DNA of 64,000 bases from a virus. Positions within the stretch are counted from its first letter, which is position 1. Every line of letters begins with the position of its first letter. The stretch is taken from the IMG/VR virus record IMGVR_UViG_3300027801_001565; one strand, 5' to 3'. Shown here piece after piece: positions 22,363-60,179 of the stretch. A program made the translations under genes and the position numbers. Under the pieces are notes generated by a model. It was not told the origin of the DNA. It made no database searches and saw only the letters and a program-made list of their open reading frames with translations.

Positions 22363-23340
22363 TTACCCTATCATAAACGAAGGAGGTAGCTCGTACTTTT
22401 TCTGCATCTCTAACTCTATCTGCTCTATCTCTCTAATAGCTTCGTTATAAATTGTCTCACCGTTTAATGTAACTCCGCCAGGCATTTGTACGCCAGCGAA
22501 CTTCTTGAGGTTCTCACCCCATTGTCTTTTAATTAGTGCTGTTGAATATTTCTTAAGAAACATATCATCATACACTTCATTGTATGTCGCAGGATCTACA
22601 ATAGCATATGCTTCTGCTACAATAAAGTCCCCGATGTTATATGTTTTGTCCCAATCGGTATCTACATATAGTCTGTTGGTTTTTCTGTTCCAACGTATTT
22701 GTCTTTGACTTACTAGTAACTGCTCTAATGTTGACAGATGAGATCTTACCATTGTATAGTAGATCATGTCCGCGCCCATTAAGTTATATAAGTCATTCAT
22801 TCTAAACTGATACATAAGATCAAACAGTTGTCCGTCTTTAGTAGCATTTGTAGCTGCTCCACCGAAATTAAATACTTTTGTTATTCCGATAATACCGTTA
22901 CCTATAGGTAGATATCCGTTTTCAATATCCCCTTTCTGATAAAAGTCATTAGCTGCTATAGTAGCAGTGGCACCTGATAGATGCCCTGTTACCGTCTCAC
23001 TTGCAACATAGGTGCCAGTCTGGGCGTTCTCAAAGTAAAGGAATTGTCCAGTAACATCAGTAGAATCAAACTTGGACAATGCCCCGCTTGTTCCACCTGT
23101 TAGTATGTCTCCCCTTACGAAGTTCCCGCCCAGATTAGCTGATAATTTAAGACTCGATCCAGTGACTTGATGTTTAACGTATGTTCTTTCCACACCATCG
23201 AAATGATACTCTTGGAAGAACTGAAGGGCATCATCAACTCTATCTGATACTTGGCCCTCTTCTACGTTAATCTCAATAACAGGATGCCCTAGTCTCCTAA
23301 GGCAATACTCTGTTAATTCTGTCCTACTTGATAAAGCCAT
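22363..23340 (-). CDS. gp13: Neck protein
   Basis: YCLRRLG.PVIEINV, YHFDG and KRQWG.NL.KF.GVQMPGGVTLNG motifs. Confidence 0.93.
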   Translation of the reverse strand: MALSSRTELTEYCLRRLGHPVIEINVEEGQVSDRVDDALQFFQEYHFDGVERTYVKHQVTGSSLKLSANLGGNFVRGDILTGGTSGALSKFDSTDVTGQFLYFENAQTGTYVASETVTGHLSGATATIAANDFYQKGDIENGYLPIGNGIIGITKVFNFGGAATNATKDGQLFDLMYQFRMNDLYNLMGADMIYYTMVRSHLSTLEQLLVSQRQIRWNRKTNRLYVDTDWDKTYNIGDFIVAEAYAIVDPATYNEVYDDMFLKKYSTALIKRQWGENLKKFAGVQMPGGVTLNGETIYNEAIREIEQIELEMQKKYELPPSFMIG

Positions 23341-23349
23341 TGCTTATTC

Positions 23350-25281
23350 CTAGTTTAATAATGTTCCAGCTGCATTGTATATCGAAGTACCTGTAAGTGT
23401 GGCTGTTGAGCCTTCACCTGGTGTATGTGAAACAGTAATACCGTTTCCACCTGATACTTGCGTCATAAAGTTACCTGTTGTATCCGTACCTAATGCAACA
23501 CTATTGGCTGCTATAGTTGTACTTATACTTATATTACCTGTACCATCAAAGTTTGCAGTACCTGTTACATCGCCGCTTACTGCTATTGCTCTAGCTGTTG
23601 CCAGTGCCGTAGCTGTTGCTGCTAATCCAGATGTTGACTGGTTACCGGCTGCGTTAACACCTGGCAAGTTGATCGCTGCAGTACCATCAAATGATACCCC
23701 ACCAATTGTTCTTGCTGTTGCTAATGCCGTAGCACCTGCTGCTAATGTTGAAGTTGCTGCGTTACCACTTGTTGCTTGGTTACCGGTTGCGTTAACACCT
23801 GGCAAGTTAATATTTGCAGAACCATTAAATGATACCCCGCCTATTGTTCTTGCTGTTGCTAGTGTTGTTGCTGTGCCTGCGTTACCAGTAGCTGTCCCAG
23901 CTGAACCACTTACATTACCTGTAACATCACCTGTTACGTCACCAACTAAGGTAGCGTTAAGGGTTTTGTTAAAGTTCCATCTATCGTCGGCTGAGGTATA
24001 AGTTAATGTTGCTGCTGCTCCATCGACTGTTAGTCCTCCACCGTTAGCTGCTGCTGCGTTTGCCGCACCTTGAGCTACTGTGATGTTTAGATCTGCAACT
24101 GTTAAAGTTGAAGAGCTAACTGTTGTTGTAGTTCCGGAAACTGTAAAGTCTCCTGTTACTGTTAAGTTATCTGATACTTGTACATTACCACTTCCATTAC
24201 CTGCTAATACTAAATTAGTATCTGTAGATTTTGATGTAAGTGAATCTGCCGCTAAGCCTGAACCAAATGTAATTGCATTACCTGCTGAGTTTGTGATATT
24301 GCTACCGTCCTCAATTTGTAATGTGCTTTTAACAGAAACAAGCCCTGAACCAGTAGCGTCTAATTCGACATTACCTGATCCTGATGTTTGTACTGATACG
24401 TTTTGGTTAGCATCAGCTGAGATACTAATTGTACCTGAGTTATCTTCAATAACCTTTTGTCCATTAACATACAATGAACCAGGACCTACGAATACGTCCT
24501 TCCATTGAAGTGATGAACTACCAAGACTAAATGTATCATCAGTGCTTGGGAATAGGCCTGTTGAAGTCATACTCATAACTTCTGTTCCGGCTGCGTCGAA
24601 TCTAATAGTATCTTCGTCTGCTGACTCTTCTACCTGTATTTTCGTATCGCCGTCTGCATCTTTTAAACCCTTCGCTATGATTGTGTCAAAGGTTGGTGTT
24701 GCAGTTGTTACTAAACTTTGATCTATTGCCTTCACCGCTGCTAAATCAGATAACTCGCTATCCATAAGAGCGCCTGCTGCTGTAACATTTGTTGTATCTG
24801 TTACGTCTGCTGCTGCTTCAATGGCATCTAGTTTGCTATGATCTGCTGCTGTAAAGTCATTAGTTGTTAATCCCCCATCACCTACGGTGTATGTGGTGTT
24901 AGTATCTGTTGCGTTAAGTGTTGTCCCAGTTATAGACAGGTTGCTGCCTAAATCTAAGAACGCTGTAGCGCCAGCGCTATCGTCCCAGAAGACAATTTGA
25001 TCGTCGTCTGGATCTGATAAGGATTCTAATCCTAAGTGGGATAGGTTAACCGTAACTGCTCCGCCTGTTCCTCCACCTGAAAGTCCTGTGCCTGCAGTAA
25101 CACCCGTAATATCTCCAGCTTGTATCTCTGAAAATTTTGCGAGTCTATGTCCGCCTGCTGTTGAACCGTCATGTACGAGGACTGTATCTAGCGTAGTATC
25201 TACGGAAAGCTCACCCACGGCACCTGTAAACGAACCGTTTTGACTCGTTGTGCCTCTTCTAAATTGTACCTGTGTTGGCAT
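23350..25281 (-). CDS. Fibre protein with Mtd-N-like N-terminal domain
   Basis: N-terminus QVQFRRGT...FTGA.GE..VDT...VHDG.TAGG; G/T/A/S-rich; TARTIGGVSF.G repeats. Confidence 0.75.
   Translation of the reverse strand: MPTQVQFRRGTTSQNGSFTGAVGELSVDTTLDTVLVHDGSTAGGHRLAKFSEIQAGDITGVTAGTGLSGGGTGGAVTVNLSHLGLESLSDPDDDQIVFWDDSAGATAFLDLGSNLSITGTTLNATDTNTTYTVGDGGLTTNDFTAADHSKLDAIEAAADVTDTTNVTAAGALMDSELSDLAAVKAIDQSLVTTATPTFDTIIAKGLKDADGDTKIQVEESADEDTIRFDAAGTEVMSMTSTGLFPSTDDTFSLGSSSLQWKDVFVGPGSLYVNGQKVIEDNSGTISISADANQNVSVQTSGSGNVELDATGSGLVSVKSTLQIEDGSNITNSAGNAITFGSGLAADSLTSKSTDTNLVLAGNGSGNVQVSDNLTVTGDFTVSGTTTTVSSSTLTVADLNITVAQGAANAAAANGGGLTVDGAAATLTYTSADDRWNFNKTLNATLVGDVTGDVTGNVSGSAGTATGNAGTATTLATARTIGGVSFNGSANINLPGVNATGNQATSGNAATSTLAAGATALATARTIGGVSFDGTAAINLPGVNAAGNQSTSGLAATATALATARAIAVSGDVTGTANFDGTGNISISTTIAANSVALGTDTTGNFMTQVSGGNGITVSHTPGEGSTATLTGTSIYNAAGTLLN
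23520..23885 (-). repeat. Intragenic repeat of about 41 codons (ATxLATARTIGGVSFxGxAxINLPGVNAxGNQ), two full copies plus a partial one
   Basis: gcgttaacacctggcaagtt occurs near 23650 and again near 23790. Confidence 0.8.
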
Positions 25282-25298
25282 GATTTTCTCCTAATATT

Positions 25299-25553
25299 TT
25301 AATATGTTCCGCCGTCTATGCTAGATCCATCGTCTAACGCAGAAGCTGATATTGTACCTGAAATATTCCCTACTGGAATATCCCCTGAAATGTTACCAGC
25401 TGTTGCTAGCATGAGTTCTGTACCGCCTGCGGTACTTCCATCGTGGACCCTAATAGAATTGTTTGTAGTGTTAATAGAAAGTTCCCCAACTGCACCGGTG
25501 AACGAATTGTTCTGGGTGCTGGTTCCTCTTCTAAACTGTACTGTAACTGCCAT
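25299..25553 (-). CDS. Small fibre/adaptor protein (stand-alone Mtd-N-like domain)
   Basis: Paralog of the N-terminus of 23350..25281; ends IDGGTY. Confidence 0.75.
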   Translation of the reverse strand: MAVTVQFRRGTSTQNNSFTGAVGELSINTTNNSIRVHDGSTAGGTELMLATAGNISGDIPVGNISGTISASALDDGSSIDGGTY

Positions 25554-25576
25554 AAGTTTCTCCTAGTAGTATGTTA

Positions 25577-25885
25577 TTATACGCTGCCAAGATCTTCAGT
25601 TGCCAGTCTATACTTTATGTTCGTTGATAGATCGTAAATTAAGTCTAGGTACTCGCCAAACGCATCAGTACTTAAAGCCGAAGCCACGCTTCCATAATCC
25701 CCTGTAGGGAATGTGAGAGCAAGATCTTGTTCGCCGAAGTTAGCAACTTTGATTATTGCATCATTGCTGTCTCTTGCATAAAGTGTTTTATCTACGGTGT
25801 TGATCGCTACTTCACCTACGACTAGATCACTAGTTGTTGGTACTGAACCGCTCGTTTCCGATCTTTTTAATTTAATTACTGCCAT
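25577..25885 (-). CDS. Small fibre/adaptor protein
   Basis: IKLKRS...P...L..GE.A.N..D..LY fibre N-terminal motif. Confidence 0.7.
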   Translation of the reverse strand: MAVIKLKRSETSGSVPTTSDLVVGEVAINTVDKTLYARDSNDAIIKVANFGEQDLALTFPTGDYGSVASALSTDAFGEYLDLIYDLSTNIKYRLATEDLGSV

Positions 25886-25910
25886 TTGTCTTTTCCTATT
25901 TACTTAATGT

Positions 25911-26270
25911 TTACTTTGTGTCTTTAAGTTTAGGATTAGGAATCATCGGTAACGGTCCGTCTACTTTAGGGTTGTAACCATTGGGCCTTGGAGCCCTTAC
26001 CGTTTCCGGTATTCTTGGTTTATCTACAACCTTTGCCTTCTCATCATATGAGAAGTTAGTTTCCTTTACGTTAGCCTCCGGAGCTTTTGGCTCCGGGACT
26101 TCCCTCAATTCCTGTAGTTCCTTTGTCTGTATCTGTATTGATTCAGTTAAAGCAACTACTTCCTGCTCTTTTAGACTTAATCTAGTTTTGAATAATAAGT
26201 TTTCTTGGGTCAACTCGTTAATCTTGTTCGCTAAGTTATTAATATATTCATTGACTAATTTTTCATCCAT
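25911..26270 (-). CDS. Hypothetical coiled-coil protein (possible fibre chaperone)
   Basis: Heptad-rich N-terminal half, Pro-rich C-terminal half. Confidence 0.6.
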   Translation of the reverse strand: MDEKLVNEYINNLANKINELTQENLLFKTRLSLKEQEVVALTESIQIQTKELQELREVPEPKAPEANVKETNFSYDEKAKVVDKPRIPETVRAPRPNGYNPKVDGPLPMIPNPKLKDTK

Positions 26271-26306
26271 TTCAATTACCTTAGTATTGTTTGTTAATAA
26301 TAATTA

Positions 26307-27716
26307 CTAGTAAGTACCGCCGTCAAGAGCACCAAATGCTGGTGTTCCGTCTGCGCCAGCTATCATTACTTGACCTGCTGAACCTGCTGCTGTTACTTGT
26401 AAAGCTCCTGAACCATTACCATACATAACACCTTTAGATGTAAATGTACTAGCTCCAGTACCACCGTCTGCTACTAACAAGTCTGTAATTCCTGTAATAG
26501 TACCACCTGTGATAGTAGTGTTACTATCCTCAAGGTGAGCTACAAGTGTTGCCACTGCATAGCCTGTACCACTAGTGTTAACAGTAGTTGTTGGTGCTTC
26601 TTGTAGGTCTTTAAATATTTTCCATTTACCACTATCGTTAGCATCTCTGAATAAACCACCGTGTATATCTTGCGATCCACTAGTGTCCATCAAACCATAC
26701 AAACCAATGTCGACGACATCGCTTGCACCGTTACCTGTAGCAAGAGAGATCAATGGATCTGCTACTGCTAAAGTTGTAGAGTTTACTGTTGTAGTTGTAC
26801 CTGAAACTGTTAGGTTACCTGAAACAGTAGCGTTTCCGCCAATTGTTACATCGTCTGGTAATCCAATAGTGATTGTGTTGTTTGAAACTGTTGTTTCAAT
26901 TTCGTTTGCTGTACCCACGAAGTTAAGTGTGTCAGTACCTACTGTTACAACATCATCTGAACCAGTGTCGCCACCGATTGTTAATGATGAACTTGTAGAT
27001 GCTGTCGAAACACTTGTAATACGTCCTTGTGCGTCAACTGCGATAACAGGAATAAGTGAAGCTGAACCATATGATCCTGCTGACACTGCTGTGTTATCCA
27101 AGCTGTGTGTTACTGCGTTTCCGGAAACTACTGATGTAATACCAGTTCCACCTGAAAGGGTGAATGTTTCTGAGTCTGTAATTGCACCAGTTCCAGAATC
27201 ACCGGCAATGCCGACGTCTGTCATGTGAGCTTGTGCGTCTACATAATCCTTAACAGCACCTGAGGTAGGGATAATTGTATCACTATCTGTAAGTGTTGTT
27301 TGGAATTCTGTAGCTGTAATCGTACCGTCTGAAAGTGATCCGAACGTGACTTGACCTGTCATGTTAGCTGTTGCGCCTGCAATGCTGCCAGTTACGTCGC
27401 CAGTTATGTCGCCAGTTACATTACCTGTTAAGGCTGCTGTTACTGTGCCAGCTGCTATGTTACCACTGCCGTCTCTTTTTACAAGAGTTGAAGCTGTGTT
27501 AGCATTTGTTGCTGCGTCTACGATGTCTGTGTAAAACTTACCACCGAGCTTTTGAATAACAGCGTTACCGCCACTATCAATCGACTCAGTATAAAGTATA
27601 GCACCTGCACCGGAGTTCGATCTATCTTCTGCGTAGGCCAATTCCCCTTCGAGTAGGTCTGAAGTAGCTGGAGCTGTTGAACCAGTACTTCTCTTAATCT
27701 GAATTGTTGTTGCCAT
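26307..27716 (-). CDS. Fibre protein
   Basis: IQIKRS...GELAY N-terminus; GNLTVSGTTTTVNS and AGSYGSA..IP..VDAQGRIT motifs; ends LDGGTY. Confidence 0.75.
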   Translation of the reverse strand: MATTIQIKRSTGSTAPATSDLLEGELAYAEDRSNSGAGAILYTESIDSGGNAVIQKLGGKFYTDIVDAATNANTASTLVKRDGSGNIAAGTVTAALTGNVTGDITGDVTGSIAGATANMTGQVTFGSLSDGTITATEFQTTLTDSDTIIPTSGAVKDYVDAQAHMTDVGIAGDSGTGAITDSETFTLSGGTGITSVVSGNAVTHSLDNTAVSAGSYGSASLIPVIAVDAQGRITSVSTASTSSSLTIGGDTGSDDVVTVGTDTLNFVGTANEIETTVSNNTITIGLPDDVTIGGNATVSGNLTVSGTTTTVNSTTLAVADPLISLATGNGASDVVDIGLYGLMDTSGSQDIHGGLFRDANDSGKWKIFKDLQEAPTTTVNTSGTGYAVATLVAHLEDSNTTITGGTITGITDLLVADGGTGASTFTSKGVMYGNGSGALQVTAAGSAGQVMIAGADGTPAFGALDGGTY

Positions 27717-27790
27717 TTGTCTATTCTCCTAGTTAAATGTCTAATTAATTTTGCATGTTATAATATAAAGCTTTATAATATATACGTTAA

Positions 27791-28048
27791 TTAAAACGTT
27801 CCACCATCAATAGCTGCAATGGATGCTGCAACAGCGCTTGCTGGTGATGCCTCCCAATTACCGCTTGTTGAATCGTATACCAAAGTATAACCATTCTGTA
27901 CGTCCGTCGTGTCTACTCCCTGCAAGTTATCAATCTTTTGTGCCGTAGCAACTTGAGATTGGCTTGTAGATGTAGTTATAACTCTGGTAGATCCAGTACC
28001 TACTGAAACTTTTACATTGTTACTTCCTACGCTTACATTAACTGCCAT
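27791..28048 (-). CDS. Small fibre-associated protein
   Basis: L..VD......G.TLVYD...G.W motif; ends IDGGTF. Confidence 0.65.
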   Translation of the reverse strand: MAVNVSVGSNNVKVSVGTGSTRVITTSTSQSQVATAQKIDNLQGVDTTDVQNGYTLVYDSTSGNWEASPASAVAASIAAIDGGTF

Positions 28049-28060
28049 TTGTATTCTCCT

Positions 28061-28390
28061 TTAAGCTCTGGTAACATTTGGTGTTACTGTAACCAGGCCT
28101 TCCAAAACTCTTAAAGTCTCTGTCGAACTTGCTATCTCGACATCGTAAACGTATCGGCCTGCTTTAACTGCTGCCGTTTCCGTCGCCGTGAGTGATAAAG
28201 TAACTACGCCAGTCGCATCTACTTTTGCTGTAGTAAAACTAGTAGCAGTTGTAGCATCGTATGACTTTCTCATTTGACTTGTTACTGTGTAGTAAGTCAG
28301 GTCTTTGGCTGATAAATCGTCGTTAGTAAGGTTAACAGTCATATTGAATGTTGTACCTTGGTCTAAAACAATGTTTGTCATTACTGCCAT
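28061..28390 (-). CDS. Virion structural/adaptor protein (BppU-N-like Ig fold)
   Basis: DQGTTF, QMRKSY, LSLTA.ET...KAGRYVYDVEI and RVLEG.VTV.P motifs. Confidence 0.7.
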   Translation of the reverse strand: MAVMTNIVLDQGTTFNMTVNLTNDDLSAKDLTYYTVTSQMRKSYDATTATSFTTAKVDATGVVTLSLTATETAAVKAGRYVYDVEIASSTETLRVLEGLVTVTPNVTRA

Positions 28391-28422
28391 TGGTGAGTTC
28401 TCTTTAAATTACTTGTTCTTCT

Positions 28423-28434
28423 TATTTATAAATA
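28423..28434. promoter_or_regulatory. Palindromic bidirectional late promoter
   Basis: TATTTATAAATA gives TATAAATA on both strands, between the divergent fibre and glycosyltransferase operons. Confidence 0.8.
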
Positions 28435-28437
28435 ATA

Positions 28438-29115
28438 ATGATTACAATGAAAACTATTTTAACTTTAAAATATGGCACCAAATATAGTGCTGAAGACGTG
28501 AATTCGATATACGAACATACCGATGGTGTGTACGATTACATCTGTGTAACCGATGATCCCTCAGGGCTTAACCCTAACATTAAAGTTATTTATATAGAAC
28601 ACGAACCCGAAGGTAATATGGAGAAGCTTAAACTTTTTCAGATTAAGGCTGATGAGGGGGAGACTATATTATATTTAGATCTTGATGTACGAATACAAAA
28701 GAATATAGATCATCTATTCGACTACTGCCAGCACTATCCAGTAATCGCATACACTTGGTGGAAGGATAAGGGTATTGATGAAATGCCAATAGATGAGTTT
28801 CCATACCACGCCAGCGAACCTTTAAGCAATTTTAACTCTAGTATTATGTTGTGGAAAGATGCAACGCATATTTGGAATCATTATTGTGAGAAACAAGACG
28901 AATATATAGTTAAGTATCCTCACGGAGATGATACATTTTTATACCATGAGGGATTTACCTTTGAACACTTACCCGATAAAGAGGTGTATTCATACATGTT
29001 CTCAGGTAGAAAATACAGACCTGAATATACAATATGTCTACTAAATGGGCAAGACAGATACCCGGAGATTGAGAAAGAATATGATGAACTTTGTTTGCAT
29101 AAAATGGGGCGATAA
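28438..29115 (+). CDS. GT-A fold glycosyltransferase (GT8-like)
   Basis: LKYGTKY, CVTDD, YLDLD (DxD), FNSSIM and GDD motifs; start may be at 28447. Confidence 0.75.
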   Translation: MITMKTILTLKYGTKYSAEDVNSIYEHTDGVYDYICVTDDPSGLNPNIKVIYIEHEPEGNMEKLKLFQIKADEGETILYLDLDVRIQKNIDHLFDYCQHYPVIAYTWWKDKGIDEMPIDEFPYHASEPLSNFNSSIMLWKDATHIWNHYCEKQDEYIVKYPHGDDTFLYHEGFTFEHLPDKEVYSYMFSGRKYRPEYTICLLNGQDRYPEIEKEYDELCLHKMGR

Positions 29116-29842
29116 ATACGAGCCTGCATATGTAAATAACCTGTATCGTATGGTACAGAACAATTACAAGCATGACTTTACATTTACCTGCTTCACCGAC
29201 GATCCCGTTGGATTGGATTGCGACACAAAACCTATACCCGATATAGATCCTCTTCACCCTAAGTACTGGTTTGGAATAGAGAACTACTGCTGGGATAGAT
29301 CCAAGTTCCTTGTATTCAACTCGCATAACTGGTTGGGGTATAATGGAAAGTGGTGTTATATGGATCTTGATATAATAATTCATAATGATATATCAGATCT
29401 AAACGAACTAGCATTGAAACCTAGAATAGCACACTCCAATTGGCAGGATCCTAAACAGTTACATGATAGGAAATTCATAGACATCAGAGGGACTTATCAT
29501 AATTCTAGTCTCATGTGCTGGAACAGAGATCAATGTGAACACATATTCTGGGACGTAATTCAAGAAGAGCAACAAATATTCAGAACGTTCTTTAAGGGTA
29601 CAGACAATTATCATTTCTGGAGACAGAGAGAGTTTTGGAATAACATACCTCACGATTGGTTGTACAGTTATAACCATGGTCTTAAATATCCAGATGATTT
29701 AGAGCGTTATAAATATAGAGAAGACTGTAAGATATGTATCTTTAATGTAAATAAGATTAAAGGCCAGACTCCACAGTATGAGATAAATGAAATAGATGAT
29801 GAACAACTTTTGAGACATTGGCATGGTAACACTAATAGCTAA
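29081..29842 (+). CDS. GT-A fold glycosyltransferase (GT8-like)
   Basis: CIKWGDKY, CFTDD, YMDLD, NSSLM and GTDNY motifs. Confidence 0.8.
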   Translation: MMNFVCIKWGDKYEPAYVNNLYRMVQNNYKHDFTFTCFTDDPVGLDCDTKPIPDIDPLHPKYWFGIENYCWDRSKFLVFNSHNWLGYNGKWCYMDLDIIIHNDISDLNELALKPRIAHSNWQDPKQLHDRKFIDIRGTYHNSSLMCWNRDQCEHIFWDVIQEEQQIFRTFFKGTDNYHFWRQREFWNNIPHDWLYSYNHGLKYPDDLERYKYREDCKICIFNVNKIKGQTPQYEINEIDDEQLLRHWHGNTNS

Positions 29843-31334
29843 TCAGCTAGACGCTAAATATAGTCAATCACATATAAATGCTTTTTATACACAAGCAAAA
29901 AAACTGATTGCTGATCCTTTTGACTTTGTTGTCTTTGTAAACCAAACAGAAATGAGTCTGCTAAACACAACCAAAAAGAAAGACGGGTACCTACAAGGGA
30001 TTACATTCCATGTACCTAAGTACGGTAAAGACTGGATTGAAATTGATATTATCCAGCATACCAAACCAGGCGAGCGTAGTCTACTTGTAACACCAAACGT
30101 TATATTAAACAATCCTGAATCGTTCTTTAGTTATAAGTCAAAGGGTATTGACAAACTATATCTTGAAGACGGAAATCTGTGTTACTTCTGCCACCGTAAT
30201 GAAAAGGTTGAAGGCATATTATCTAAGTGGAATGAGATGGAAGACTCAATGACGTTTGACAACCACTCCTTTGAAGATGCGTTCTTTAGTAACATTGTAC
30301 CAGACTTTTCGTTTATACAAAATACAAATCACAACTACCCAGAAAAGACTGAGGGCGACATAGTTGTATTGCCTTATTGGTATTCAGATTTCTCTAAAGA
30401 ACAATTAGAATTAAATTACAACAGAGAGGCAGATCTATATCCTTGGCTACCCGAAAGAGTAGAGATTGAAGCAATAGGACCTACTGGACATTTAACTACT
30501 GATATTGTTGAAGATGCTTTTACTGTAGACTTTTGTGAGAAGGCAAGACTAAAAAGAATTAAAATGGTAGGACTTACACAAGATCCTACTGATAACCCAG
30601 AGTTGTTTGACATAATACAATACCTAATGGGTAACTGGGGCGTTGCAGTTGACCTTGAAACTGATGGTATTAATAACGACATGGGATGGTGGCGTACATT
30701 GGGTATGTTATACTTTACAATAACAAATAATATAGCTAACATTACATTTAATATTAACACCTCACACCCAGACGAAAAGATACTACGACATGCAGACGAG
30801 TTACTTAAGCAGGGTTGCAGAGTCTTTTGGAGTTACACACAAACATCGTTGACGCAAGAGAATGATGTTGTAAGAGCTAAAGAGTTATCTAAAAGACATC
30901 TTTTTACAGGTTTCATATATAATGATAAAATCGAACCAGAGAAAGTGGTTATAGAACCGAAGGAAACCAGTGAAATGCCAGACTATAATCTCATTACACT
31001 TGACACTCTACAGACAGTTAAACAAGACGACATATATAAAGAGAGAAAGATAAAATTTGCTCCACATGTTAAATGTGAAGGTAAGATTAATAATCAATTT
31101 TATTTAAGTGCTAAAGGAAATGTATTTCCGTGTAAGCATGTAGCAAACAATATTATCTCAGCAGACAGATCTCCAGAACATAGGACGGAGTTAATGTATA
31201 GTTGGGACAAGAACAATATTTGTAATTATACATTAGAAGATATTTTTACTAATGATTTTTACAAAGGGTATTTTAATAATTTATTAAAGTTGAACCCGAT
31301 AGTTATTCATAATGAACAGGAAGGCATATGTTAA
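29823..31334 (+). CDS. Degenerate glycosyltransferase domain fused to a radical-SAM/SPASM-like domain
   Basis: N-terminus resembles the neighbouring GTs but has no DxD. C-terminal half has DPTDNPELFDII, LETDG and C...YLSAKGNVFPC, but no CxxxCxxC. Confidence 0.5.
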   Translation: MVTLIANQLDAKYSQSHINAFYTQAKKLIADPFDFVVFVNQTEMSLLNTTKKKDGYLQGITFHVPKYGKDWIEIDIIQHTKPGERSLLVTPNVILNNPESFFSYKSKGIDKLYLEDGNLCYFCHRNEKVEGILSKWNEMEDSMTFDNHSFEDAFFSNIVPDFSFIQNTNHNYPEKTEGDIVVLPYWYSDFSKEQLELNYNREADLYPWLPERVEIEAIGPTGHLTTDIVEDAFTVDFCEKARLKRIKMVGLTQDPTDNPELFDIIQYLMGNWGVAVDLETDGINNDMGWWRTLGMLYFTITNNIANITFNINTSHPDEKILRHADELLKQGCRVFWSYTQTSLTQENDVVRAKELSKRHLFTGFIYNDKIEPEKVVIEPKETSEMPDYNLITLDTLQTVKQDDIYKERKIKFAPHVKCEGKINNQFYLSAKGNVFPCKHVANNIISADRSPEHRTELMYSWDKNNICNYTLEDIFTNDFYKGYFNNLLKLNPIVIHNEQEGIC

Positions 31335-31546
31335 AAGTTAAAGATGGTACGGTGATTGAAGGTAGTTTTAATGATGAGGAATTCATTCCTATTGTAGTCA
31401 ACTCAGAATTCTCCACACTATTAGTTCAAATAGATTTAGAAAATTTCGAACCAAAGTGTGTTGAAATTACAATGTTGCTTGCAGGTGAAGGCAAACAATA
31501 CGGTACAGATTATGTTATTGTTAGGAGAGCAGTAAGTGAGAGTTAA
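31328..31546 (+). CDS. Hypothetical protein
   Basis: 72 aa, overlapping both neighbours. Confidence 0.55.
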   Translation: MLKVKDGTVIEGSFNDEEFIPIVVNSEFSTLLVQIDLENFEPKCVEITMLLAGEGKQYGTDYVIVRRAVSES

Positions 31547-32348
31547 TATTGTATGTGCCAAGTGGGGGACAAAATATGGTCCTCACTTTGTAAACAAATT
31601 AAAGAATATGGCAAAAAGAAACTGTGATCCAAAACACGATTTCCATTTCTATTGTTATACTGATGACTCCGAAGGCTTTGATGATGACATTAAGGTTATA
31701 GACTTCCCAGATATTCCAAACATACACCCGAAGTATTGGTTCCAAAAAGACGAATTTAAATATGGCATGGCACGATGTTGGGATAGACCTAAAACATTTG
31801 TATTCAATACGCACAACTTTGCTGAAGATAAACCTACAGGACGTTTTGTTTTCTTTGACTTAGATGTAATCATACAGAATGACATAGAGCCTTTACTTAC
31901 ATACAACATGGAACGGCCTACTAAGTTAAGATCTTGGTGGCAAGATCCTCGTCCAATGAAGACTCGTAGATTTAAATTGGCACATGGTGCATACACAAAT
32001 GGCAGTTGTCAAGTATGGAGCGACGATCAGGCAGAATGTATATGGGACGATGTATTAAAACACCAGGAACAGATATGGTTTACATATACAGACGGTACAG
32101 ACAATTATCACTCTTGGAGATGGGGAGACTGGGGTAAGAAACTATGGGATCACTTCCCGGCAGACTATGCTTACTCGTATAACCGAGGCCGTAGTTGGGA
32201 CGATGACGATTTAGAAGTTGACATTTACAGAGAGACTCCAATTGTATGTGTATTTAATATTGATCTACTACCGTTTGAGGATGCTAGTAGAGGACACACA
32301 AAACAAGATGAGTTAGCAGACCCTGCGTTATTGAGGCATTGGGTATAA
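31536..32348 (+). CDS. GT-A fold glycosyltransferase (GT8-like)
   Basis: CAKWGTKY, CYTDD, FFDLD and GTDNY motifs; GTG start. Confidence 0.8.
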   Translation: MRVNIVCAKWGTKYGPHFVNKLKNMAKRNCDPKHDFHFYCYTDDSEGFDDDIKVIDFPDIPNIHPKYWFQKDEFKYGMARCWDRPKTFVFNTHNFAEDKPTGRFVFFDLDVIIQNDIEPLLTYNMERPTKLRSWWQDPRPMKTRRFKLAHGAYTNGSCQVWSDDQAECIWDDVLKHQEQIWFTYTDGTDNYHSWRWGDWGKKLWDHFPADYAYSYNRGRSWDDDDLEVDIYRETPIVCVFNIDLLPFEDASRGHTKQDELADPALLRHWV

Positions 32349-33037
32349 TGCACATAGAGTATTTAAATATCTATACGGTTAAACATGGTACCAAATACGG
32401 CTCCGCGCATGTTAACAAGATATTAGAATCCTGTAAGCAGAATTTGTCTTACAAGTTTACGTTTCATTGTTTAACTGAAAGTCCTAAAGGATTAGATGAA
32501 GACATAGTAGTCATTCCTCTTCCTAAAGATAACAAGTTAGAAAAATGGTGGAATAAGATGTACTTGTTTGATAGCAACGTTGTAAGACAGAAGGGTGAGA
32601 ATCTTTTCTTTGACTTAGATGTTATCATACAAAAAGACATAGATGATATAGCTAATTTCGATCCTGAGGATTGCTTAGCTTTTGGCCAAACACATTGGCA
32701 TGATTTAGAAACTATGGCAAAGAACACAGAGCATGTTCCTCATAGATTCACAGATTTAAATAGTAGTGTATTAAGATGGAACGATAACCTGGATACAGAA
32801 AATATATCGTTATATTTTAAAGCACATTTGGAAAAGGTCCTATGGTACTATAGGGGGATAGATAACTTCTTCATGCACAAGGGTGTAGCAAGAATTAAAT
32901 ATTTTCCAATAGGGTGGTTTTATAGTTACAATCACGGGTACATATATCCGCATGATGTAGAAAAACAAGTGTACAGACAGATACCATATGTTTGTTTATT
33001 TGATTCAATGGGAAGAAAAGAAGATGTTAAATTTTAA
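32348..33037 (+). CDS. GT-A fold glycosyltransferase (GT8-like)
   Basis: VKHGTKY, WWNKM.LF, FFDLD, NSSVL and GID motifs; TAATG coupling to the previous gene. Confidence 0.8.
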   Translation: MHIEYLNIYTVKHGTKYGSAHVNKILESCKQNLSYKFTFHCLTESPKGLDEDIVVIPLPKDNKLEKWWNKMYLFDSNVVRQKGENLFFDLDVIIQKDIDDIANFDPEDCLAFGQTHWHDLETMAKNTEHVPHRFTDLNSSVLRWNDNLDTENISLYFKAHLEKVLWYYRGIDNFFMHKGVARIKYFPIGWFYSYNHGYIYPHDVEKQVYRQIPYVCLFDSMGRKEDVKF

Positions 33038-33692
33038 TTTTTTAAACAGTATGCAATATTGGGGAGAGGGTTTAGCCAAAGTCGAGCATGAAATGAAACA
33101 CAAGCACGATGACTTTAGGCAGGCGCTTAATCCGAATACTATGGAAGGGGCTATTTGGTTAGTTGAAGAGCTAAAGAAAAGCCTAGACAATTACATGAAA
33201 GACGAGCAGTTTAATATTCTTATATTAAATAGCTGGTTAGGAGTTCCTTTAGTTCCACTGCTGTGTGAGAACTTGTCCGTAGGAGAAATGCACCTAGTTG
33301 ACATCGATAAAGAAGCTTTAGAGCTCTCTAAGGTCTTTAACAAGCATTATAGCACTGAAGAATACATAAAATTAAATCATTGGAACTTAGATGTTCCCTT
33401 CGCTTTTGATGAACTTAATCAATTGAATGTTGATATTGTAATTACAATGGGAGCAGAACAGATGTTTCCATTACAGGATTTAAAAACAGCAAACAAACAT
33501 GCAGTATTTGCTTGTCAATCATCTAATGTTATTGAAGAGATGTATGGTATCAACTGTGTGGATAGTGAGAAGGCTCTTATTGAGAACGTGGGTCTTAAAG
33601 ATACCATGTACTCAGGTAAAACAAAACAATTTTACTATGATTGGAATGGTAAAGTATACTTCGATAGGTTTATGGCAATTGGCACAAAATAA
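33024..33692 (+). CDS. Class I SAM-dependent methyltransferase-like protein (divergent)
   Basis: ILILNSWLG / LVDID / DIVIT pattern and C-terminal RFMAIG; glycine-rich motif I is degenerate. Confidence 0.55.
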   Translation: MLNFNFLNSMQYWGEGLAKVEHEMKHKHDDFRQALNPNTMEGAIWLVEELKKSLDNYMKDEQFNILILNSWLGVPLVPLLCENLSVGEMHLVDIDKEALELSKVFNKHYSTEEYIKLNHWNLDVPFAFDELNQLNVDIVITMGAEQMFPLQDLKTANKHAVFACQSSNVIEEMYGINCVDSEKALIENVGLKDTMYSGKTKQFYYDWNGKVYFDRFMAIGTK

Positions 33693-33912
33693 AAAACTGA
33701 ACGCAGCTTTAAAAGAAGCATCCTTCGATACTTTTATAGGAGCAATAATAATGTTCCCTTTAAGTGTATTCATAATAAAAGTTTGTATAGAGTACGCTGA
33801 AACCACAGCATTTATGGCTGCGTTAATTAACTTTATATCTTTAACTGGAGTAGCCATCGTGAGGAAAACCCTAGTGAGGCTAAGGTTCTCCAAGTACGAT
33901 GTGTTTGATTAG
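33679..33912 (+). CDS. Small membrane protein (two helices)
   Basis: TTG start overlapping the previous stop; two hydrophobic segments. Confidence 0.55.
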   Translation: MAQNKKLNAALKEASFDTFIGAIIMFPLSVFIIKVCIEYAETTAFMAALINFISLTGVAIVRKTLVRLRFSKYDVFD

Positions 33913-34088
33913 TCTCGTTCGCCGATCTTTTTAAACTTACGTCTAGATTTACTAAACTGTTTTAAAGGACTCTTAAAGACTTTGTCATTGTATTGAACCA
34001 AGTGTCCAGTCTTTTTGTTAACGTGATATATTCCATTTGTTATATTCACGCCATCCCAGTCAGTTACTTCTTGTAATATCTCAATCAT
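33909..34088 (-). CDS. Small hypothetical protein (59 aa)
   Basis: Not in the ORF track: MIEILQEVTDWDG...FSKSRRKFKKIGERD; start overlaps the ligase stop. Confidence 0.65.
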   Translation of the reverse strand: MIEILQEVTDWDGVNITNGIYHVNKKTGHLVQYNDKVFKSPLKQFSKSRRKFKKIGERD

Positions 34089-35193
34089 TTCTATCTCCTA
34101 TACCCCAGTCAATTACTACTGGGAAACGTGGAACACCATCTGGTGTCTTCTCAAAATATCTAACAGTAACCCAAGTAGGTTTTACTTCCTGTTCAAGTAA
34201 TGCTTTTAATACAGCCTGTTGTCCTCTAACTCCACTACCGAAAGTTCTACCATCGCCTAACTCTAGTTCAAAGTGTTTGGCATATCCCGCCCAGTTACCT
34301 GAACCCTCTAGTACTTTAACAACATTAAACTCTTCGGTAACAAACTCTTTTCGTTTAAGTAGATTCTTACTTCTTTTATTCTCATAAGGTGTGTCGTTAC
34401 GAACCATTTGTCCTTCGTATCCTTGCTCTGTGTATTCTGAATATAAAGTATCTAGTTCGTCTTGGCTATCACACCATGTTGTTGTAACTAATTTAATACA
34501 ATCACTGCTACGCCAAGCCATAAAGTCTTCATTAAGAAAGGCATCTCTATCTGAAAATGATTCGTTGTCTAAATCTACCATATCATATACATGATACTGA
34601 ACAAGTTTTTCTGCCATTTCTTGTTCTTCCTGTGAAGGTTTTATTTTACGAACTAGACTTGTAATCTTGTTGAAGTCTGATTTTAGTGCGTGATTATAAA
34701 GTTCACCATCTAATATAACATCAGGCCACTCTTCAAAGAAAGCTTTTAGATCATTGTATATGTGATTACAAGTTGTAATCTCTTTTCCTGCTCTTGTATA
34801 AAGGCCGTCTTTTCTTGCAATACATCTAATACCATCTAACTTAGGTTGACTGAAACCATTAGACTGAGGTCTTTTAGTGTAGTCATGTGCTAGTTGGGGT
34901 TTAAACTTATCGTAAGAATCAACAAGTGAGATGTCTTCAAAGTATTCTTTTTCTACTTTCTTATCCCACATTGCTTGAGCTTCTTTTTGTGCTTGTTCAG
35001 CATCTGTAGTAGCATTTGCTTTACCTTCGTTCTTGCCGTAAGCATCTTTCCAACCACTAGTAACTAGTTTGCCGTCTTTAATGCCTGCAATAGTTCTAGT
35101 AGCATTCATCACACCATTAGAATATTCGACTGTTAGTTCACGAATGTTTCCGTTCGTGTCTCTTTTGTATAGTTTGTTTAAAGGAAATATCAT
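34081..35193 (-). CDS. ATP-dependent DNA ligase
   Basis: QPKLDGIRC (motif I), LDGELY, YHVYD, GYEGQMVR, LLKRK and C-terminal OB-fold PRFP motifs. Confidence 0.93.
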   Translation of the reverse strand: MIFPLNKLYKRDTNGNIRELTVEYSNGVMNATRTIAGIKDGKLVTSGWKDAYGKNEGKANATTDAEQAQKEAQAMWDKKVEKEYFEDISLVDSYDKFKPQLAHDYTKRPQSNGFSQPKLDGIRCIARKDGLYTRAGKEITTCNHIYNDLKAFFEEWPDVILDGELYNHALKSDFNKITSLVRKIKPSQEEQEMAEKLVQYHVYDMVDLDNESFSDRDAFLNEDFMAWRSSDCIKLVTTTWCDSQDELDTLYSEYTEQGYEGQMVRNDTPYENKRSKNLLKRKEFVTEEFNVVKVLEGSGNWAGYAKHFELELGDGRTFGSGVRGQQAVLKALLEQEVKPTWVTVRYFEKTPDGVPRFPVVIDWGIGDRND

Positions 35194-35351
35194 AGTATGT
35201 AGACTCCATTTGAAAATACTGTCTGCCAAACAGCTAGGGCTAGTAGTACTAGGATTCCTGCTGCAAGTAATTTAACTAAAAACATTAACATTCCTGGTAA
35301 AAATTTAAATGCCAAAAAGCCTATTGCTAACAATCCGATTAGTTCTAACAT
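35190..35351 (-). CDS. Small hydrophobic membrane protein (53 aa)
   Basis: Not in the ORF track: MLELIGLLAIGFLAFKFLPGMLMFLVKLLAAGILVLLALAVWQTVFSNGVYIL; coupled at both ends (TAATG, ATGA). Confidence 0.65.
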   Translation of the reverse strand: MLELIGLLAIGFLAFKFLPGMLMFLVKLLAAGILVLLALAVWQTVFSNGVYIL

Positions 35352-35629
35352 TAAGCCACCTCTAACATTGAGTAAGGAACATTGACTTTTGAAAGTCCTC
35401 TTCCTTGCCAGTTCATTTCAACAACACATTTCTTAGGGTTCATCTTAACAATCACCGCAGAAGTAGATTTAGTCTTTTGAACTACATTTACTTTCTGTCC
35501 AACTGAAAATTGATGACACTTGTTCCATGTCGTTGAGCCGCTTTTCAACTGATTTGCAAAGTTCACAATCTGAGTCAATTCATCTTGATTCATTGTTGAC
35601 ATTTCTATTTTTAAAGTTTGAATATTCAT
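35351..35629 (-). CDS. Early hypothetical protein (KOW/SH3-like)
   Basis: F.VGQKV.V...V.KMNPK...V pattern; own promoter and GAGG RBS. Confidence 0.7.
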   Translation of the reverse strand: MNIQTLKIEMSTMNQDELTQIVNFANQLKSGSTTWNKCHQFSVGQKVNVVQKTKSTSAVIVKMNPKKCVVEMNWQGRGLSKVNVPYSMLEVA

Positions 35630-36077: not shown

Positions 36078-36737
36078 TTAGGAGAGATGATCTGCGGATT
36101 CGCCCGAGATATCCTCAATCATGTTGCGCCACATGTCGATTTGAGGGATAACATAGGCTAATGTGATGCGTGGTTCGTGTGTTCCAGCACAATGATAGTA
36201 CACTTTCTCGGGTTCTCTGCCCTTGCCGTAGTATCCTACCTTACAAGACCAACCACCAGGATCATCCATAGTGACTATCTCATGTGTTTTGGCGTCCCTG
36301 TACTTAAAGAAGCCGCCTCCCTTCTCTGTATATGATAGAAGGATATTATAACCAGAGGCGTTCCAGTTATTGTGCCACCCCATATAACCATCAACTGGAT
36401 AGTATACATGAACTGCCTCATTTCTAGCTCCTAGAAACTCCAATAGTGTAGATGACATTTGTTCGTGTTTAACTCTAAAGTTGTCAGGGCATAGGTGTTT
36501 TAGTCCCATTAGATCAAAGCTTCTAGAGATTTCGGGATAGCCTACATGTGCGCCATCCTTTTGTAATATCTTAGCTAAATACTCAGGTCCACAACAATAC
36601 TCCATATCAACTTTAGTGTCGTTCTTTTCGTTTTCGTCTGATAACTTATTCAATGGTTCCAAGTCTTGACTAAAAAACCAATCGCTGTAGGGCGTAAGAA
36701 TATCTAAGAGTTCATCACTTATATCGGTAAATATCAT
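36078..36737 (-). CDS. Cupin / 2OG-Fe(II) oxygenase-like protein
   Basis: YYP..GYMGWHNN...YYHCA....PRITL double-stranded beta-helix pattern (HxN...H...R). Confidence 0.55.
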   Translation of the reverse strand: MIFTDISDELLDILTPYSDWFFSQDLEPLNKLSDENEKNDTKVDMEYCCGPEYLAKILQKDGAHVGYPEISRSFDLMGLKHLCPDNFRVKHEQMSSTLLEFLGARNEAVHVYYPVDGYMGWHNNWNASGYNILLSYTEKGGGFFKYRDAKTHEIVTMDDPGGWSCKVGYYGKGREPEKVYYHCAGTHEPRITLAYVIPQIDMWRNMIEDISGESADHLS

Positions 36738-37867
36738 AGTGGTGCACTCCTTGAATTGTGATCTTTACTAAACATTAATTTTTCTGCCGTATATTGTTCT
36801 TGCCATGTGTAATCATATCGTGTAGATTTGTTCTCTATTATATTAAGATCGTTGTCAACAAAGCCTACTGCTGTTATGTTATCACACTCTTTAATTATTA
36901 TATCTAATGATTGCCAAGAGTCGTCTGGAAACAATTCAAAAGCTGGCATACCCATGACTGCATCTCCTACACCTGTTTTAGGATCATTGTAATCATAACC
37001 TTTATCTTCTAGCCACTTAATAAAACCTGATTCTTCATCCATCCTATATAAATCTAATTCATTGCCAGGACCTGTAAGACATATTTGTACTTCGCCTACC
37101 ATAATACAATGTTGAGATATGCCGGTCTCATCTATGTATTCGTCTCCATCTTCAAACACCTCTCTAAGTGTTTTTCCTGTTTGTGCATAGTATGGAACGA
37201 GTGCGCCCCATAGTATTCCTGACTTTCCCCAGTCATTACTATGTTTGTCTTCATAATAATATTTTATTCTCTCCTTGCGTTTAACTCCATCCCAACAGAA
37301 ACTGTTGTAGCTTATTCCTGTCCAACCATATGATTCAAAATCTCCATGCCCAGGTGATATGGCGTGTACATAATTTTCTATTTCATGGCAGGCATTATTA
37401 AGGCAATGTGTAGCCCAACGAGTATGGTTATCCATAATCTCATACCACTTACTTACACTCCATGTTTGTCCTATAAGTACCTCGAAGTGATGATGTAGTT
37501 GATTAAAATCATCACGAAATAAATCGGGAGTCCAACAACGCTCAGGTGTAAAGTGTTGTGTTATAGTAGGAAAGTCTGTTAGTCGGGTATTAATAACTTC
37601 AATAGCATCATTAAGTTCATCACATATCTGTTGTACGTTACGACTCCATGGCTGATCTTTTGTTTTAGGAAAGCCTTTATTCATAAAACGTTTATCTAGA
37701 AGTGCGTATGATGTTTGATTATCTATACCTATATAGTTGGATATAAGTGTTTTCTTCCAAAACTGAGATATATGCTTATCATTAATATTCCAATACATGG
37801 TGAAAGCACTCTCACCATTAGAATACTCTACAAAGAATCGTTCATTATCAAGTGTCTGTCCAATCAT
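36734..37867 (-). CDS. Hypothetical protein, possibly metal-binding
   Basis: 377 aa; helical His/Glu motifs NQLHHHFE and LNNACHEIE. Confidence 0.6.
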   Translation of the reverse strand: MIGQTLDNERFFVEYSNGESAFTMYWNINDKHISQFWKKTLISNYIGIDNQTSYALLDKRFMNKGFPKTKDQPWSRNVQQICDELNDAIEVINTRLTDFPTITQHFTPERCWTPDLFRDDFNQLHHHFEVLIGQTWSVSKWYEIMDNHTRWATHCLNNACHEIENYVHAISPGHGDFESYGWTGISYNSFCWDGVKRKERIKYYYEDKHSNDWGKSGILWGALVPYYAQTGKTLREVFEDGDEYIDETGISQHCIMVGEVQICLTGPGNELDLYRMDEESGFIKWLEDKGYDYNDPKTGVGDAVMGMPAFELFPDDSWQSLDIIIKECDNITAVGFVDNDLNIIENKSTRYDYTWQEQYTAEKLMFSKDHNSRSAPL

Positions 37868-38610
37868 AGACGACCCTTTCTATTCCCAGCAGTTACTTCA
37901 TGTTGAGGTATAGTGTAGTGATAGAAAACTATATCTTCGTCTTCTAACTCTTCCGGGTTGTGTCCGTTGATAAAGTTCCATTTAACATGTAAGTCTTCTC
38001 CCCATCTCACACCATGATCGCTATAAGTTAAAAGCTTCCACATGGTGAAGGTGTCCCACTTACGAGCTGCCTTAGGATAGTCTCCAATTGGAATTGTCTC
38101 GTCCTGCTGTTTAACATACTCTCCCCACCAAGAATCCATTAGTCTAATTGTCTTTGGATTATTTCTGTATATAAACATGCCACAGTGCATTGTCATCTCT
38201 TCCGTATTAGAGAGTTTCGTTAGCGCTGCGTTGTATGGTCTAATCTTTGTGAACAACAAATCTAAATCATCTGGGAGTTGATCAAACACATCTGCAACTG
38301 CCTCATCCTGACATACCATATCGGCATCCAAGTAACAAGTCTTACCCTTGTATGGTGTTTGTCCTAACGCCCATAGTTTAGCTCTTATATGTTTAGGAAC
38401 TTCCCAATGTACAATATAGTCTGCGTGGTTCCAATCGCTTGGTTGTATCCAAGATTCATCATCTGTATAGACTGTAATGTGTGCTTCAGGCCAAAACAAT
38501 TTAACTGACTCTGCACATTCAATAGCTGCTTTATAAAATCTAATAGACTTAGATGCTACTATAATAAATCCATTATCAGGGAAGTCCTCAGGCTTTCTTA
38601 GCATCTTCAC
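37864..38610 (-). CDS. GT-A glycosyltransferase (nucleotide-diphospho-sugar transferase)
   Basis: RAKL.AL..TPY..TCYLDAD, HCG.F.Y, WDTF, WNF and FYHYT motifs. Confidence 0.8.
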   Translation of the reverse strand: MKMLRKPEDFPDNGFIIVASKSIRFYKAAIECAESVKLFWPEAHITVYTDDESWIQPSDWNHADYIVHWEVPKHIRAKLWALGQTPYKGKTCYLDADMVCQDEAVADVFDQLPDDLDLLFTKIRPYNAALTKLSNTEEMTMHCGMFIYRNNPKTIRLMDSWWGEYVKQQDETIPIGDYPKAARKWDTFTMWKLLTYSDHGVRWGEDLHVKWNFINGHNPEELEDEDIVFYHYTIPQHEVTAGNRKGRL

Positions 38611-39130
38611 CAATAACTCCTATCAGCTTAAGTTCTTCGGCTAGTAGTATGCTAGTTAACGCTTGCACTTCTAAAGGCGTTTTAGCTTTACGAACTAGTT
38701 TCTTGAGGGTATTGTTTTTAGAGCTTTTAAGCATTGGTATTTCAAATGCTTCAAGCTTTACATTGAATAGTTGTTCTTGTTTGGCTCTTACAATTTCAGC
38801 TTCGCGTCTTTGTAAGCGTTTCTTGATGTGTTCATCTCTACGCCTGACACCTTCTGCTGTATTAGCATCAATGACGTCTTCGCCATATTCTTCTAGTACT
38901 GCTGAGTAGTCTGGGTTTGTTCCATCTTTATCTTGTATTGATGCGGTAGCTTTTCTACCGTCTGGATACTCAATAGTAACGATGAGATGTTTGTGTTCCT
39001 TACTAGACCAGTAAGGATCTATAAATTTGTATTTACGTTCTTTTGGTGCTTCGGGTTCAGACTCAATAAACTTCTTGTCGGTCTTAATAACCTTAGCTTC
39101 TAAAGGAATGCTCTTCTTCGGCTTTGCCAT
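38588..39130 (-). CDS. Hypothetical protein
   Basis: 180 aa, charged; GGAG RBS. Confidence 0.65.
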   Translation of the reverse strand: MAKPKKSIPLEAKVIKTDKKFIESEPEAPKERKYKFIDPYWSSKEHKHLIVTIEYPDGRKATASIQDKDGTNPDYSAVLEEYGEDVIDANTAEGVRRRDEHIKKRLQRREAEIVRAKQEQLFNVKLEAFEIPMLKSSKNNTLKKLVRKAKTPLEVQALTSILLAEELKLIGVIGEDAKKA

Positions 39131-39151
39131 AATATCTCCATAATGTAAACT

Positions 39152-39159
39152 TATTTATA
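39152..39159 (-). promoter_or_regulatory. Late promoter of the 39130-36078 cluster
   Basis: TATAAATA. Confidence 0.75.
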
Positions 39160-54492: not shown

Positions 54493-54506
54493 ATTAGTAT
54501 TTATAC

Positions 54507-60166: not shown

Positions 60167-60179
60167 TATAAATACTGGT

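Follow-up and report, generated by a model that had tools for sequence, protein, structure and literature searches.

A conserved glycosyltransferase cassette opposite the fibre genes of a marine T4-like phage and its possible role in virion glycosylation

Introduction

Glycosyltransferases, mostly of family GT8, have been described in the tail-fibre 'host recognition cluster' of pelagimyophages and cyanomyophages, where they were read as modifying the O-chain of the host (Zaragoza-Solas et al. 2020, PMC7029224). Here we analyze a glycosyltransferase (GT) cassette that lies head to head with fibre-type genes in a 64,000-nucleotide stretch of viral DNA (IMG/VR record IMGVR_UViG_3300027801_001565; this whole stretch is referred to as the window), the source of which is an uncultured marine T4-like myovirus. 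The cassette comprises eight overlapping genes (P1 to P8) on the + strand, four of them GT paralogs, and like the pelagimyophage cluster it places GTs among the tail-fibre genes of a marine T4-like myovirus. The two differ in that the accessible part of the 2020 account describes no palindromic late box, no four fixed paralogs, no fusion of a pseudo-GT with a radical S-adenosylmethionine (rSAM) domain and no methyltransferase-like partner. Membership of the window phage among the pelagimyophages is uncertain, as its large terminase (TerL) is ~50% identical to cyanophage TerL and equally so to pelagiphage TerL.

In mycobacteriophages, virion glycosylation has reportedly been demonstrated by experiment, with glycans on capsid and tail proteins. 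There, as here, phage-encoded GTs adjoin structural genes; the systems differ in phage lineage, host and GT families, and what was shown by experiment there is read from genes alone here. The DNA glucosyltransferases of the T-even phages have a GT-B fold, are pre-replicative and need hydroxymethylcytosine. These too are phage GTs in a T4-like genome, but the cassette enzymes have a GT-A fold, and no hydroxymethylase is found in G001, a 99% complete relative with an orthologous cassette on which, in place of the whole genome of the window phage, all genome-wide absences were judged.

We propose, with a probability of about 40%, that the cassette functions as one conserved operon with translational coupling, from which the infected cell makes a short glycan in its cytoplasm, the acceptors being serine/threonine (S/T)-rich fibre proteins. 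The original prediction for this locus knew of no characterized equivalent in T4-like phages, a claim that must yield where GT8 genes in a fibre cluster are concerned, these having been published in 2020. What is apparently new is a fixed four-paralog set from a family outside Pfam and NCBIfam, a doubly inactivated yet conserved GT/rSAM fusion with a small partner, a conserved, putatively bidirectional late box, and evidence against a DNA target.

Results

Rightward of a palindrome at 28423–28434, eight + strand open reading frames (ORFs) extend from 28438 to 33912, each overlapping the next, as had been predicted, and together they make up one of just two + strand blocks in the window. The four GT-A paralogs are P1 (28447–29115, GT8-like, with a DLD motif and a match to PHROG 1962), P2 (29045–29842, with a DLD motif and a probable start at ATG 29084), P5 (31536–32348, the best conserved member, with a GTG start) and P6 (32339–33037, with a probable start at ATG 32348 that overlaps the P5 stop). 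Between P2 and P5 lie P3 (29823–31334, 503 residues), in which a GT8-like domain without DxD is fused to an rSAM/SPASM-like domain without CxxxCxxC, and P4 (31328–31546), a conserved 72-residue protein of no known family that accounts for the small ORF of the original prediction. P4 accompanies P3 in most of the relatives that have P4 and is absent where full-length P3 is absent. The cassette is completed by P7 (32988–33692, probable start ATG 33024), a Rossmann/class-I-methyltransferase-like protein with weak matches, and P8 (33679–33912), a 77-residue protein with two hydrophobic helices and a TTG start that overlaps the end of P7.

Two gene boundaries required revision. The P1 ORF opens at 28438, which had been taken as its start, but the conserved start is ATG 28447. 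A two-helix membrane protein is indeed present at the end of the cassette, as predicted, but it is the 77-residue product from TTG 33679 that relatives conserve and not that of the 137-residue ORF from 33499. P8 is optional among relatives and matches no Pfam or NCBIfam family; its assignment as a DUF2061 protein was rejected on comparison. NCBIfam searches with all cassette proteins found nothing.

That P1, P2, P5 and P6 are paralogous DxD enzymes of the GT-A type is confirmed by mutual identities of 28–43%, an invariant D-L-D and structural matches to GT-A enzymes. P2 and P5 are 43% identical (E 2e-63) and P1 and P6 are 28% identical (E 2e-16). All four have the motifs K(W/Y)G-x-KY and TDD in common, and D108-L109-D110 is invariant across 19 aligned sequences covering all four paralogs. 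P1 and P6 match PHROG 1962 'glycosyltransferase' with E 6e-13 and E 1e-8, respectively. Against the Pfam model Glyco_transf_8 (PF01501), P1 scores 15.4 bits, under the cut-off of 24.3, and P2, P5 and P6 give no match. LgtC-type GT8 enzymes possess a C-terminal histidine-containing metal/phosphate motif, HxxGxxKPW; among the invariant and near-invariant columns of the paralog-family alignment there is no histidine, and no counterpart of this C-terminal motif was found. Given the score under the Pfam cut-off and the lack of a conserved histidine, we label these enzymes GT8-like and do not treat them as GT8 members.

An AlphaFold model of the P5 family (19 family members; predicted local distance difference test score (pLDDT) 85, predicted template-modeling score (pTM) 0.88) was compared with known structures using Foldseek. 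The model matches retaining GT-A enzymes, including LgtC, GT6 enzymes, UGGT, glycogenin, GlyE and LARGE1, with LgtC the best match (E 2e-7), and of its 234 PDB matches at E ≤ 0.001 the best 50 are all GT-A enzymes. With the GT8-fold retaining enzymes LgtC, glycogenin, GlyE of the pneumococcal PsrP pathway, LARGE1 and the catalytic domain of UGGT, the cassette GTs share the GT-A fold and the DxD motif (Foldseek probability 1.0, E 2e-7 to 1e-5, template-modeling score 0.5–0.59), but they are only ~11–15% identical to them. The structural neighbors of the GT domains include GT8-fold enzymes that glycosylate proteins, namely GlyE, glycogenin, UGGT and Skp1 Gat1, and the P5 model also matches phage and giant-virus 'GT8' proteins. 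Members of the paralog family are found in viral and metagenomic sequences only, and none of the four GTs has a hydrophobic segment. Sequence and model together support the assignment of P1, P2, P5 and P6 as GT-A glycosyltransferases, which are predicted to transfer sugar from a nucleotide sugar.

The four GT groups are each monophyletic across 11 phages, the P1 and P6 orthologs forming clades with support of 100/99 and 100/96, respectively. By this phylogeny, the GTs were duplicated before this phage clade diverged, and all four copies have been retained since.

The degenerate GT/rSAM fusion of the original prediction is confirmed in P3, in which both catalytic motifs are lost. The structure model (pLDDT 80) has two domains. 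The N-terminal domain matches GT8 structures, carries TPN in the place of DLD and is found weakly by the GT paralog profile (E 0.006 in G001). The C-terminal domain matches the rSAM-SPASM proteins SuiB, SkfB, anSME, PqqE and BlsE (Foldseek E 3e-6 to 1e-4) and is modeled as a partial TIM barrel with a SPASM/twitch extension. Its matches to the Pfam models Radical_SAM and SPASM are under the cut-offs, and sequence comparison shows it to be homologous to true rSAM proteins, for which NCBIfam offered generic models only, far under their cut-offs. CxxxCxxC is absent or deleted in P3 of the window and in two further sequences (P0046 and P0047). It is kept in more distant phage homologs with the same two-domain build (P0055, P0056 and P0059) and in stand-alone homologs. 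The rSAM/SPASM relatives of the C-terminal domain are mostly peptide or protein maturases; SuiB, SkfB, anSME and PqqE resemble it in fold, whereas P3 of the window lacks CxxxCxxC and has, in addition, a GT-like domain in which DxD is missing. Another family, the 'pseudo-SAM/SPASM' proteins (NCBIfam TIGR04347), has likewise lost the cluster cysteines. Measured against the close relative L004, the ratio of nonsynonymous to synonymous substitution rates (dN/dS) is 0.05 for the N-terminal and 0.24 for the C-terminal domain, low values that indicate purifying selection on both parts of P3.

P7 is found in every relative cassette. Its designation as methyltransferase-like rests on weak leads, all of its matches being sub-threshold: it scores 14.7 bits against the cut-off of 22.9 for Spermine_synth, its PDB match to spermidine synthase is weak (E 0.11) and Atlas leads point to Methyltransf_31. 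At the place of motif I, which is GxGxG in class I methyltransferases, P7 has N-S-W-L-G; D105 and D107 are invariant.

A search of IMG/VR with P5 yielded 183 related loci. In the ~30 loci with enough flank the gene order is L3-L2-L1 on the − strand, then P1 P2 [P3 P4] P5 P6 P7 [P8] on the + strand, then variable genes and finally R4 on the − strand, with optional genes in brackets and L1 to L3 denoting the genes of the leftward arm. At least 30 T4-like phages from metagenomes have the cassette in this place. In every one of these ~30 loci that spans the whole cassette, the core of P1, P2, P5, P6 and P7 is intact and in order. Relative to L004, dN/dS is 0.02–0.24 across all cassette genes, both dead P3 domains included (P4, 0.24; P5, 0.018; P7, 0.04; P8, 0.11), and on these ratios all cassette genes are under purifying selection.

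The junction itself is plastic by lineage: thyX, a DUF2061 ORF, a GNAT acetyltransferase, a ligase and extra ORFs come and go. A thyX gene that overlaps P4 on one side and P5 on the other is found in ~17 of 80 loci and in one distant relative (for example, L009 9334–10004, L092 9357–10046 and G001:C1:67847–68440). The embedded thyX of G001 is its only Thy1 gene and its only thymidylate synthase, no ThyA-family gene being present in that genome; no thyX is found in the 64 kb of the window. In a more remote T4-like phage the junction carries just one GT, on the + strand, and distant homologs occur in mixed contexts, in L095 for instance with PTPS, DAO and UvdE. Variant architectures are also seen at the junction (L082 7798–10011 and L091 1892–3906): in one, a SPASM-like C-terminus extends an intact P2-like GT to a 737-residue fusion, and in another a GNAT acetyltransferase is followed by a P3-type fusion that keeps CxxxCxxC.

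As predicted, one palindrome separates the cassette from the fibre genes. The sequence TATTTATAAATA occurs once in the window, at 28423–28434, with 0.02 occurrences expected by chance, and it contains the T4-type late box TATAAATA on both strands, at 28427–28434 on the + strand and 28430–28423 on the − strand. The box alone is found 23 times in the window compared with 8.4 expected, mostly directly upstream of structural genes. Among 35 distinct L1-P1 spacers the full palindrome is kept in 30 and the leftward box in all 35, while the flanks drift in both length and make-up. No TATT extension is seen at the other late boxes of the window. Because the palindrome is kept while its flanks drift, and because the other boxes do without the extension, both box orientations appear to be under selection. 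At a second divergent junction (59684/59720), boxes face both ways ahead of baseplate genes. An internal + strand TATAAATA box, at 29708 in the window, is not consistently kept in relatives. Of the T4-type late transcription factors, the coactivator gp33 (PF16805) is present in G001 and is not found in the window.

The leftward box faces three S/T-rich fibre-type genes on the − strand (26307–28390): L1 (28061–28390), L2 (27791–28048) and L3 (26307–27716). Their PHROG matches are to tail-fibre assembly and to baseplate or structural families, their S+T content of 26–28% is the highest in the window, and every relative with sufficient flank shows them in synteny with the cassette. A palindrome in the L3-L2 spacer, ATATAAAGCTTTATAT (~27762–27782), is conserved in many relatives; between these two fibre genes the transcript might fold into a hairpin there or be processed. 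Inside P1 (28587–28594, − strand) there is an antisense TATAAATA whose codon position (P1 +140/149) is unchanged in ~30 relatives. The fibre genes might have here an additional late promoter facing left, or the box might simply follow from the conserved V-I-Y-I codons. Elsewhere, TATAAATA is followed after exactly 5 nucleotides by ATG at 54492–54505 (− strand) and 60167–60182 (+ strand) in the window and ahead of the L1 ortholog of L083 and L076, and with T4 spacing, which would place the first transcribed base on or beside the start codon, the genes so arranged could give leaderless late mRNAs.

The original prediction held the cassette to be a late operon co-regulated with the fibre genes. 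The late timing is a reading of the motif, and co-regulation through the bidirectional box, kept in 30 of 35 spacers, is putative. A scan for sigma-70-type early promoters returned 26 sites compared with 32.7 in shuffles; the best + strand site, at 27750–27779, was considered as an early promoter of the cassette and rejected because it is not conserved in relatives. RNA data are available as contigs from four marine metatranscriptome runs in three studies; contig depth is a poor measure that cannot rank genes, and contigs do not reveal starts or timing. The fibre arm is covered by kilobase-long RNA contigs (72–175x) that end at 28212–28409, and in one of these adapter sequence follows directly after 28409, 14 nucleotides downstream of the leftward box on the − strand. 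Rightward, no RNA contig begins near 28440. The contig ends give a weak hint of a leftward promoter, and equal, co-regulated expression of the cassette gets no support from the RNA contigs. The rightward late box probably works, though other promoters may also serve the operon.

Pieces of the fibre arm (26000–28409) recur in marine metatranscriptome libraries from the three studies, most at ≥99% identity. As these contigs are long, deep and for the most part that similar, the phage or a very close relative is active in present-day seawater.

In the surrounding window, PHROG matches identify the large terminase (18622–20274), gp15 (20752–21540), gp14 (21615–22358), gp13 (22363–23340) and a run of fibre-type genes (23350–28390), all on the − strand. 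Right of the cassette, also on the − strand, are a DNA ligase (34081–35229) and a gene for a 2089-residue structural protein. A second, plainly late operon (36078–39159, − strand) stands behind a TATAAATA box at 39152–39159 and includes another DxD protein (YLDAD; 37864–38613, − strand) and R4 (36078–36737, − strand), which in every relative directly adjoins the cassette. R4 has the invariant residues H64, H122, N124, H182 and R190, and its Atlas leads, all sub-0.9, are to 2-oxoglutarate-oxygenase families. PDB sequence searches with the P5-, P7- and R4-family profiles gave nothing usable.

Among 50,697 phage records, megablast of 27000–35500 and tblastn of P1 found no match. P5 had marginal matches only, such as a Tetraselmis viridis virus S20 'glycosyltransferase' (E 3e-3), and the sole match to P7 was in Ralstonia phage RsoM2USA (30% identity). 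From these searches with the region, P1, P5 and P7, the cassette is present in no cultured relative.

Discussion

In the mechanism that we propose, each GT would add one sugar from a host nucleotide sugar, either in sequence or on separate acceptors; in the GlyE-type pathway of serine-rich-repeat proteins, several GTs work in series. P7 would tailor the glycan product, and P3 together with P4 would serve as a non-catalytic adaptor or substrate holder. The acceptors, the least certain element, would be the S/T-rich fibre proteins of the other arm and of the neighboring late operon, and progeny particles would then carry a phage-made glycan.

Several lines of evidence favor a protein acceptor. 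In ~30 loci the cassette has a fixed position beside the fibre genes, and the two have a late box in common. The P3 rSAM domain is related to peptide maturases, and the structural neighbors of the GTs include enzymes that glycosylate proteins. The flanking proteins are 26–28% S+T, and the adjacent late operon holds another DxD protein. Elsewhere in its genome, G001 encodes gp33 together with a sugar epimerase/dehydratase and a PF11397 GT. The complete picture, in which marine T4-like phages build a methylated oligosaccharide on their fibres using four GT8-like enzymes, a dead GT/rSAM adaptor and a shared bidirectional late promoter, is tentative and, taken as a whole, rather doubtful.

A number of observations pull the other way. 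The putative virion-protein acceptor is read from gene context and fold, and fibre proteins are commonly S/T-rich anyway. In 5 of the 35 spacers, all from divergent phages, there is a leftward box and no rightward one. Where the rightward box is present in the window, it ends 12 nucleotides before the conserved ATG at 28447. T4 late transcription starts ~6 nucleotides after the box, so with this spacing a cassette mRNA from the rightward box would have next to no leader; where an AAGGAG comes straight after the box, as it does in some relatives, it would lie upstream of a start site at the T4 spacing and be lost from the transcript. RNA contigs of the cassette are short, at 3–18x similar to the region of the non-structural ligase gene, a weak hint given how poor a measure depth is. 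Moreover, the only thymidylate synthase gene of G001 lies inside the operon, which would fit an operon transcribed outside the late phase as well, although this is not decisive since T4-type late transcription overlaps replication.

Several of these observations also suit a different target. The soluble GTs could act at the inner face of the membrane on lipopolysaccharide (LPS) core, O-chain or capsule intermediates, with P7 methylating a sugar and P8 anchoring the complex, and the altered surface would exclude superinfecting phages or stop the loss of progeny on debris. The best structural match, LgtC, is a lipooligosaccharide (LOS) galactosyltransferase, and GT8-fold enzymes act mostly on LPS or LOS. 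Zaragoza-Solas et al. (2020, PMC7029224) gave the pelagimyophage GT8 genes this reading. The cassette repeatedly includes small membrane ORFs (P8, DUF2061), the low RNA contig depth resembles that of ligase, and a thyX in the same operon would fit pre-late expression. However, the sole conserved element of the spacer is a late box, and a surface change made late brings little exclusion benefit. The cassette also lacks a flippase, polymerase, ligase or lipid-carrier enzyme, its GTs are without a hydrophobic segment, it is fixed beside fibre genes and not among other auxiliary genes, and the relatives of its rSAM-SPASM domain act mostly on peptides. We regard modification of the host envelope as possible and somewhat less probable than that of the fibre proteins.

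Less probable again is a soluble host protein, modified for takeover or anti-defense, or a small molecule, the fibre-side position being no more than a tolerated insertion hotspot. The changing gene content of the junction and the mixed contexts of distant homologs such as those of L095 are in keeping with this, but a core of five genes kept intact, in order and under strong purifying selection speaks against it, and we provisionally consider such a target improbable.

Glycosylation of phage DNA, in which sugars would be added stepwise to a modified base and restriction evaded, has in its favor the thyX and DNA ligase genes in or beside the cassette, the folE and phosphoribosyltransferase genes at the left end of the window that reveal other DNA modification in this phage, and the precedent of paralogous GTs acting stepwise on DNA in T4-like phages (arabinosyl-hydroxymethylcytosine, RB69-like), but this target, against which the original prediction had also argued, is very improbable, because G001 offers no route to hydroxymethyl-pyrimidines: it lacks a Thymidylat_synt-family (PF00303, ThyA-type) hydroxymethylase, Tet_JBP (PF12851) and C5 DNA methylase (PF00145), its single Thy1 gene is a candidate for the ordinary enzyme, the T4 alpha- and beta-glucosyltransferases are GT-B and not GT-A enzymes, and the deazaguanine genes of the window are separate from the cassette.

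Should the glycan prove to reside on the fibres, T4-like phages would gain their first virion glycosylation system, one that is abundant in the ocean and belongs to a widespread group of uncultured marine myoviruses. Virion glycosylation would extend from actinobacteriophages to T4-like phages, and views would change on how some of the most abundant large marine phages recognize their hosts, how stable their particles are and how they are grazed or recognized in an immune-like way. Should the host envelope be the target, the cassette would be a conserved superinfection-exclusion or surface-remodeling device in a lytic phage. In either case, the four fixed paralogs define a GT-A family not covered by Pfam or NCBIfam, P3 gives a clear example of a pseudoenzyme that selection has preserved, and the palindromic TATAAATA is a compact candidate bidirectional late promoter that can be tested.

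Two further gene groups lie at a distance from the cassette. At the left end of the window (2072–3772, − strand), genes for an Rv2179c-like exonuclease, GTP cyclohydrolase I (folE) and a phosphoribosyltransferase fit a 7-deazaguanine DNA-modification operon, part of a pathway separate from the cassette. In G001 (G001:C1:27582–31217, locus L084), a cell-wall hydrolase, an NAD-dependent sugar epimerase/dehydratase, gp33 and a PF11397 'GlcNAc' glycosyltransferase (E 2e-33) stand in a row, the last from a family that includes the cytoplasmic Skp1 hydroxyproline GlcNAc-transferase; the counterpart of this row would fall just past the right end of the window.

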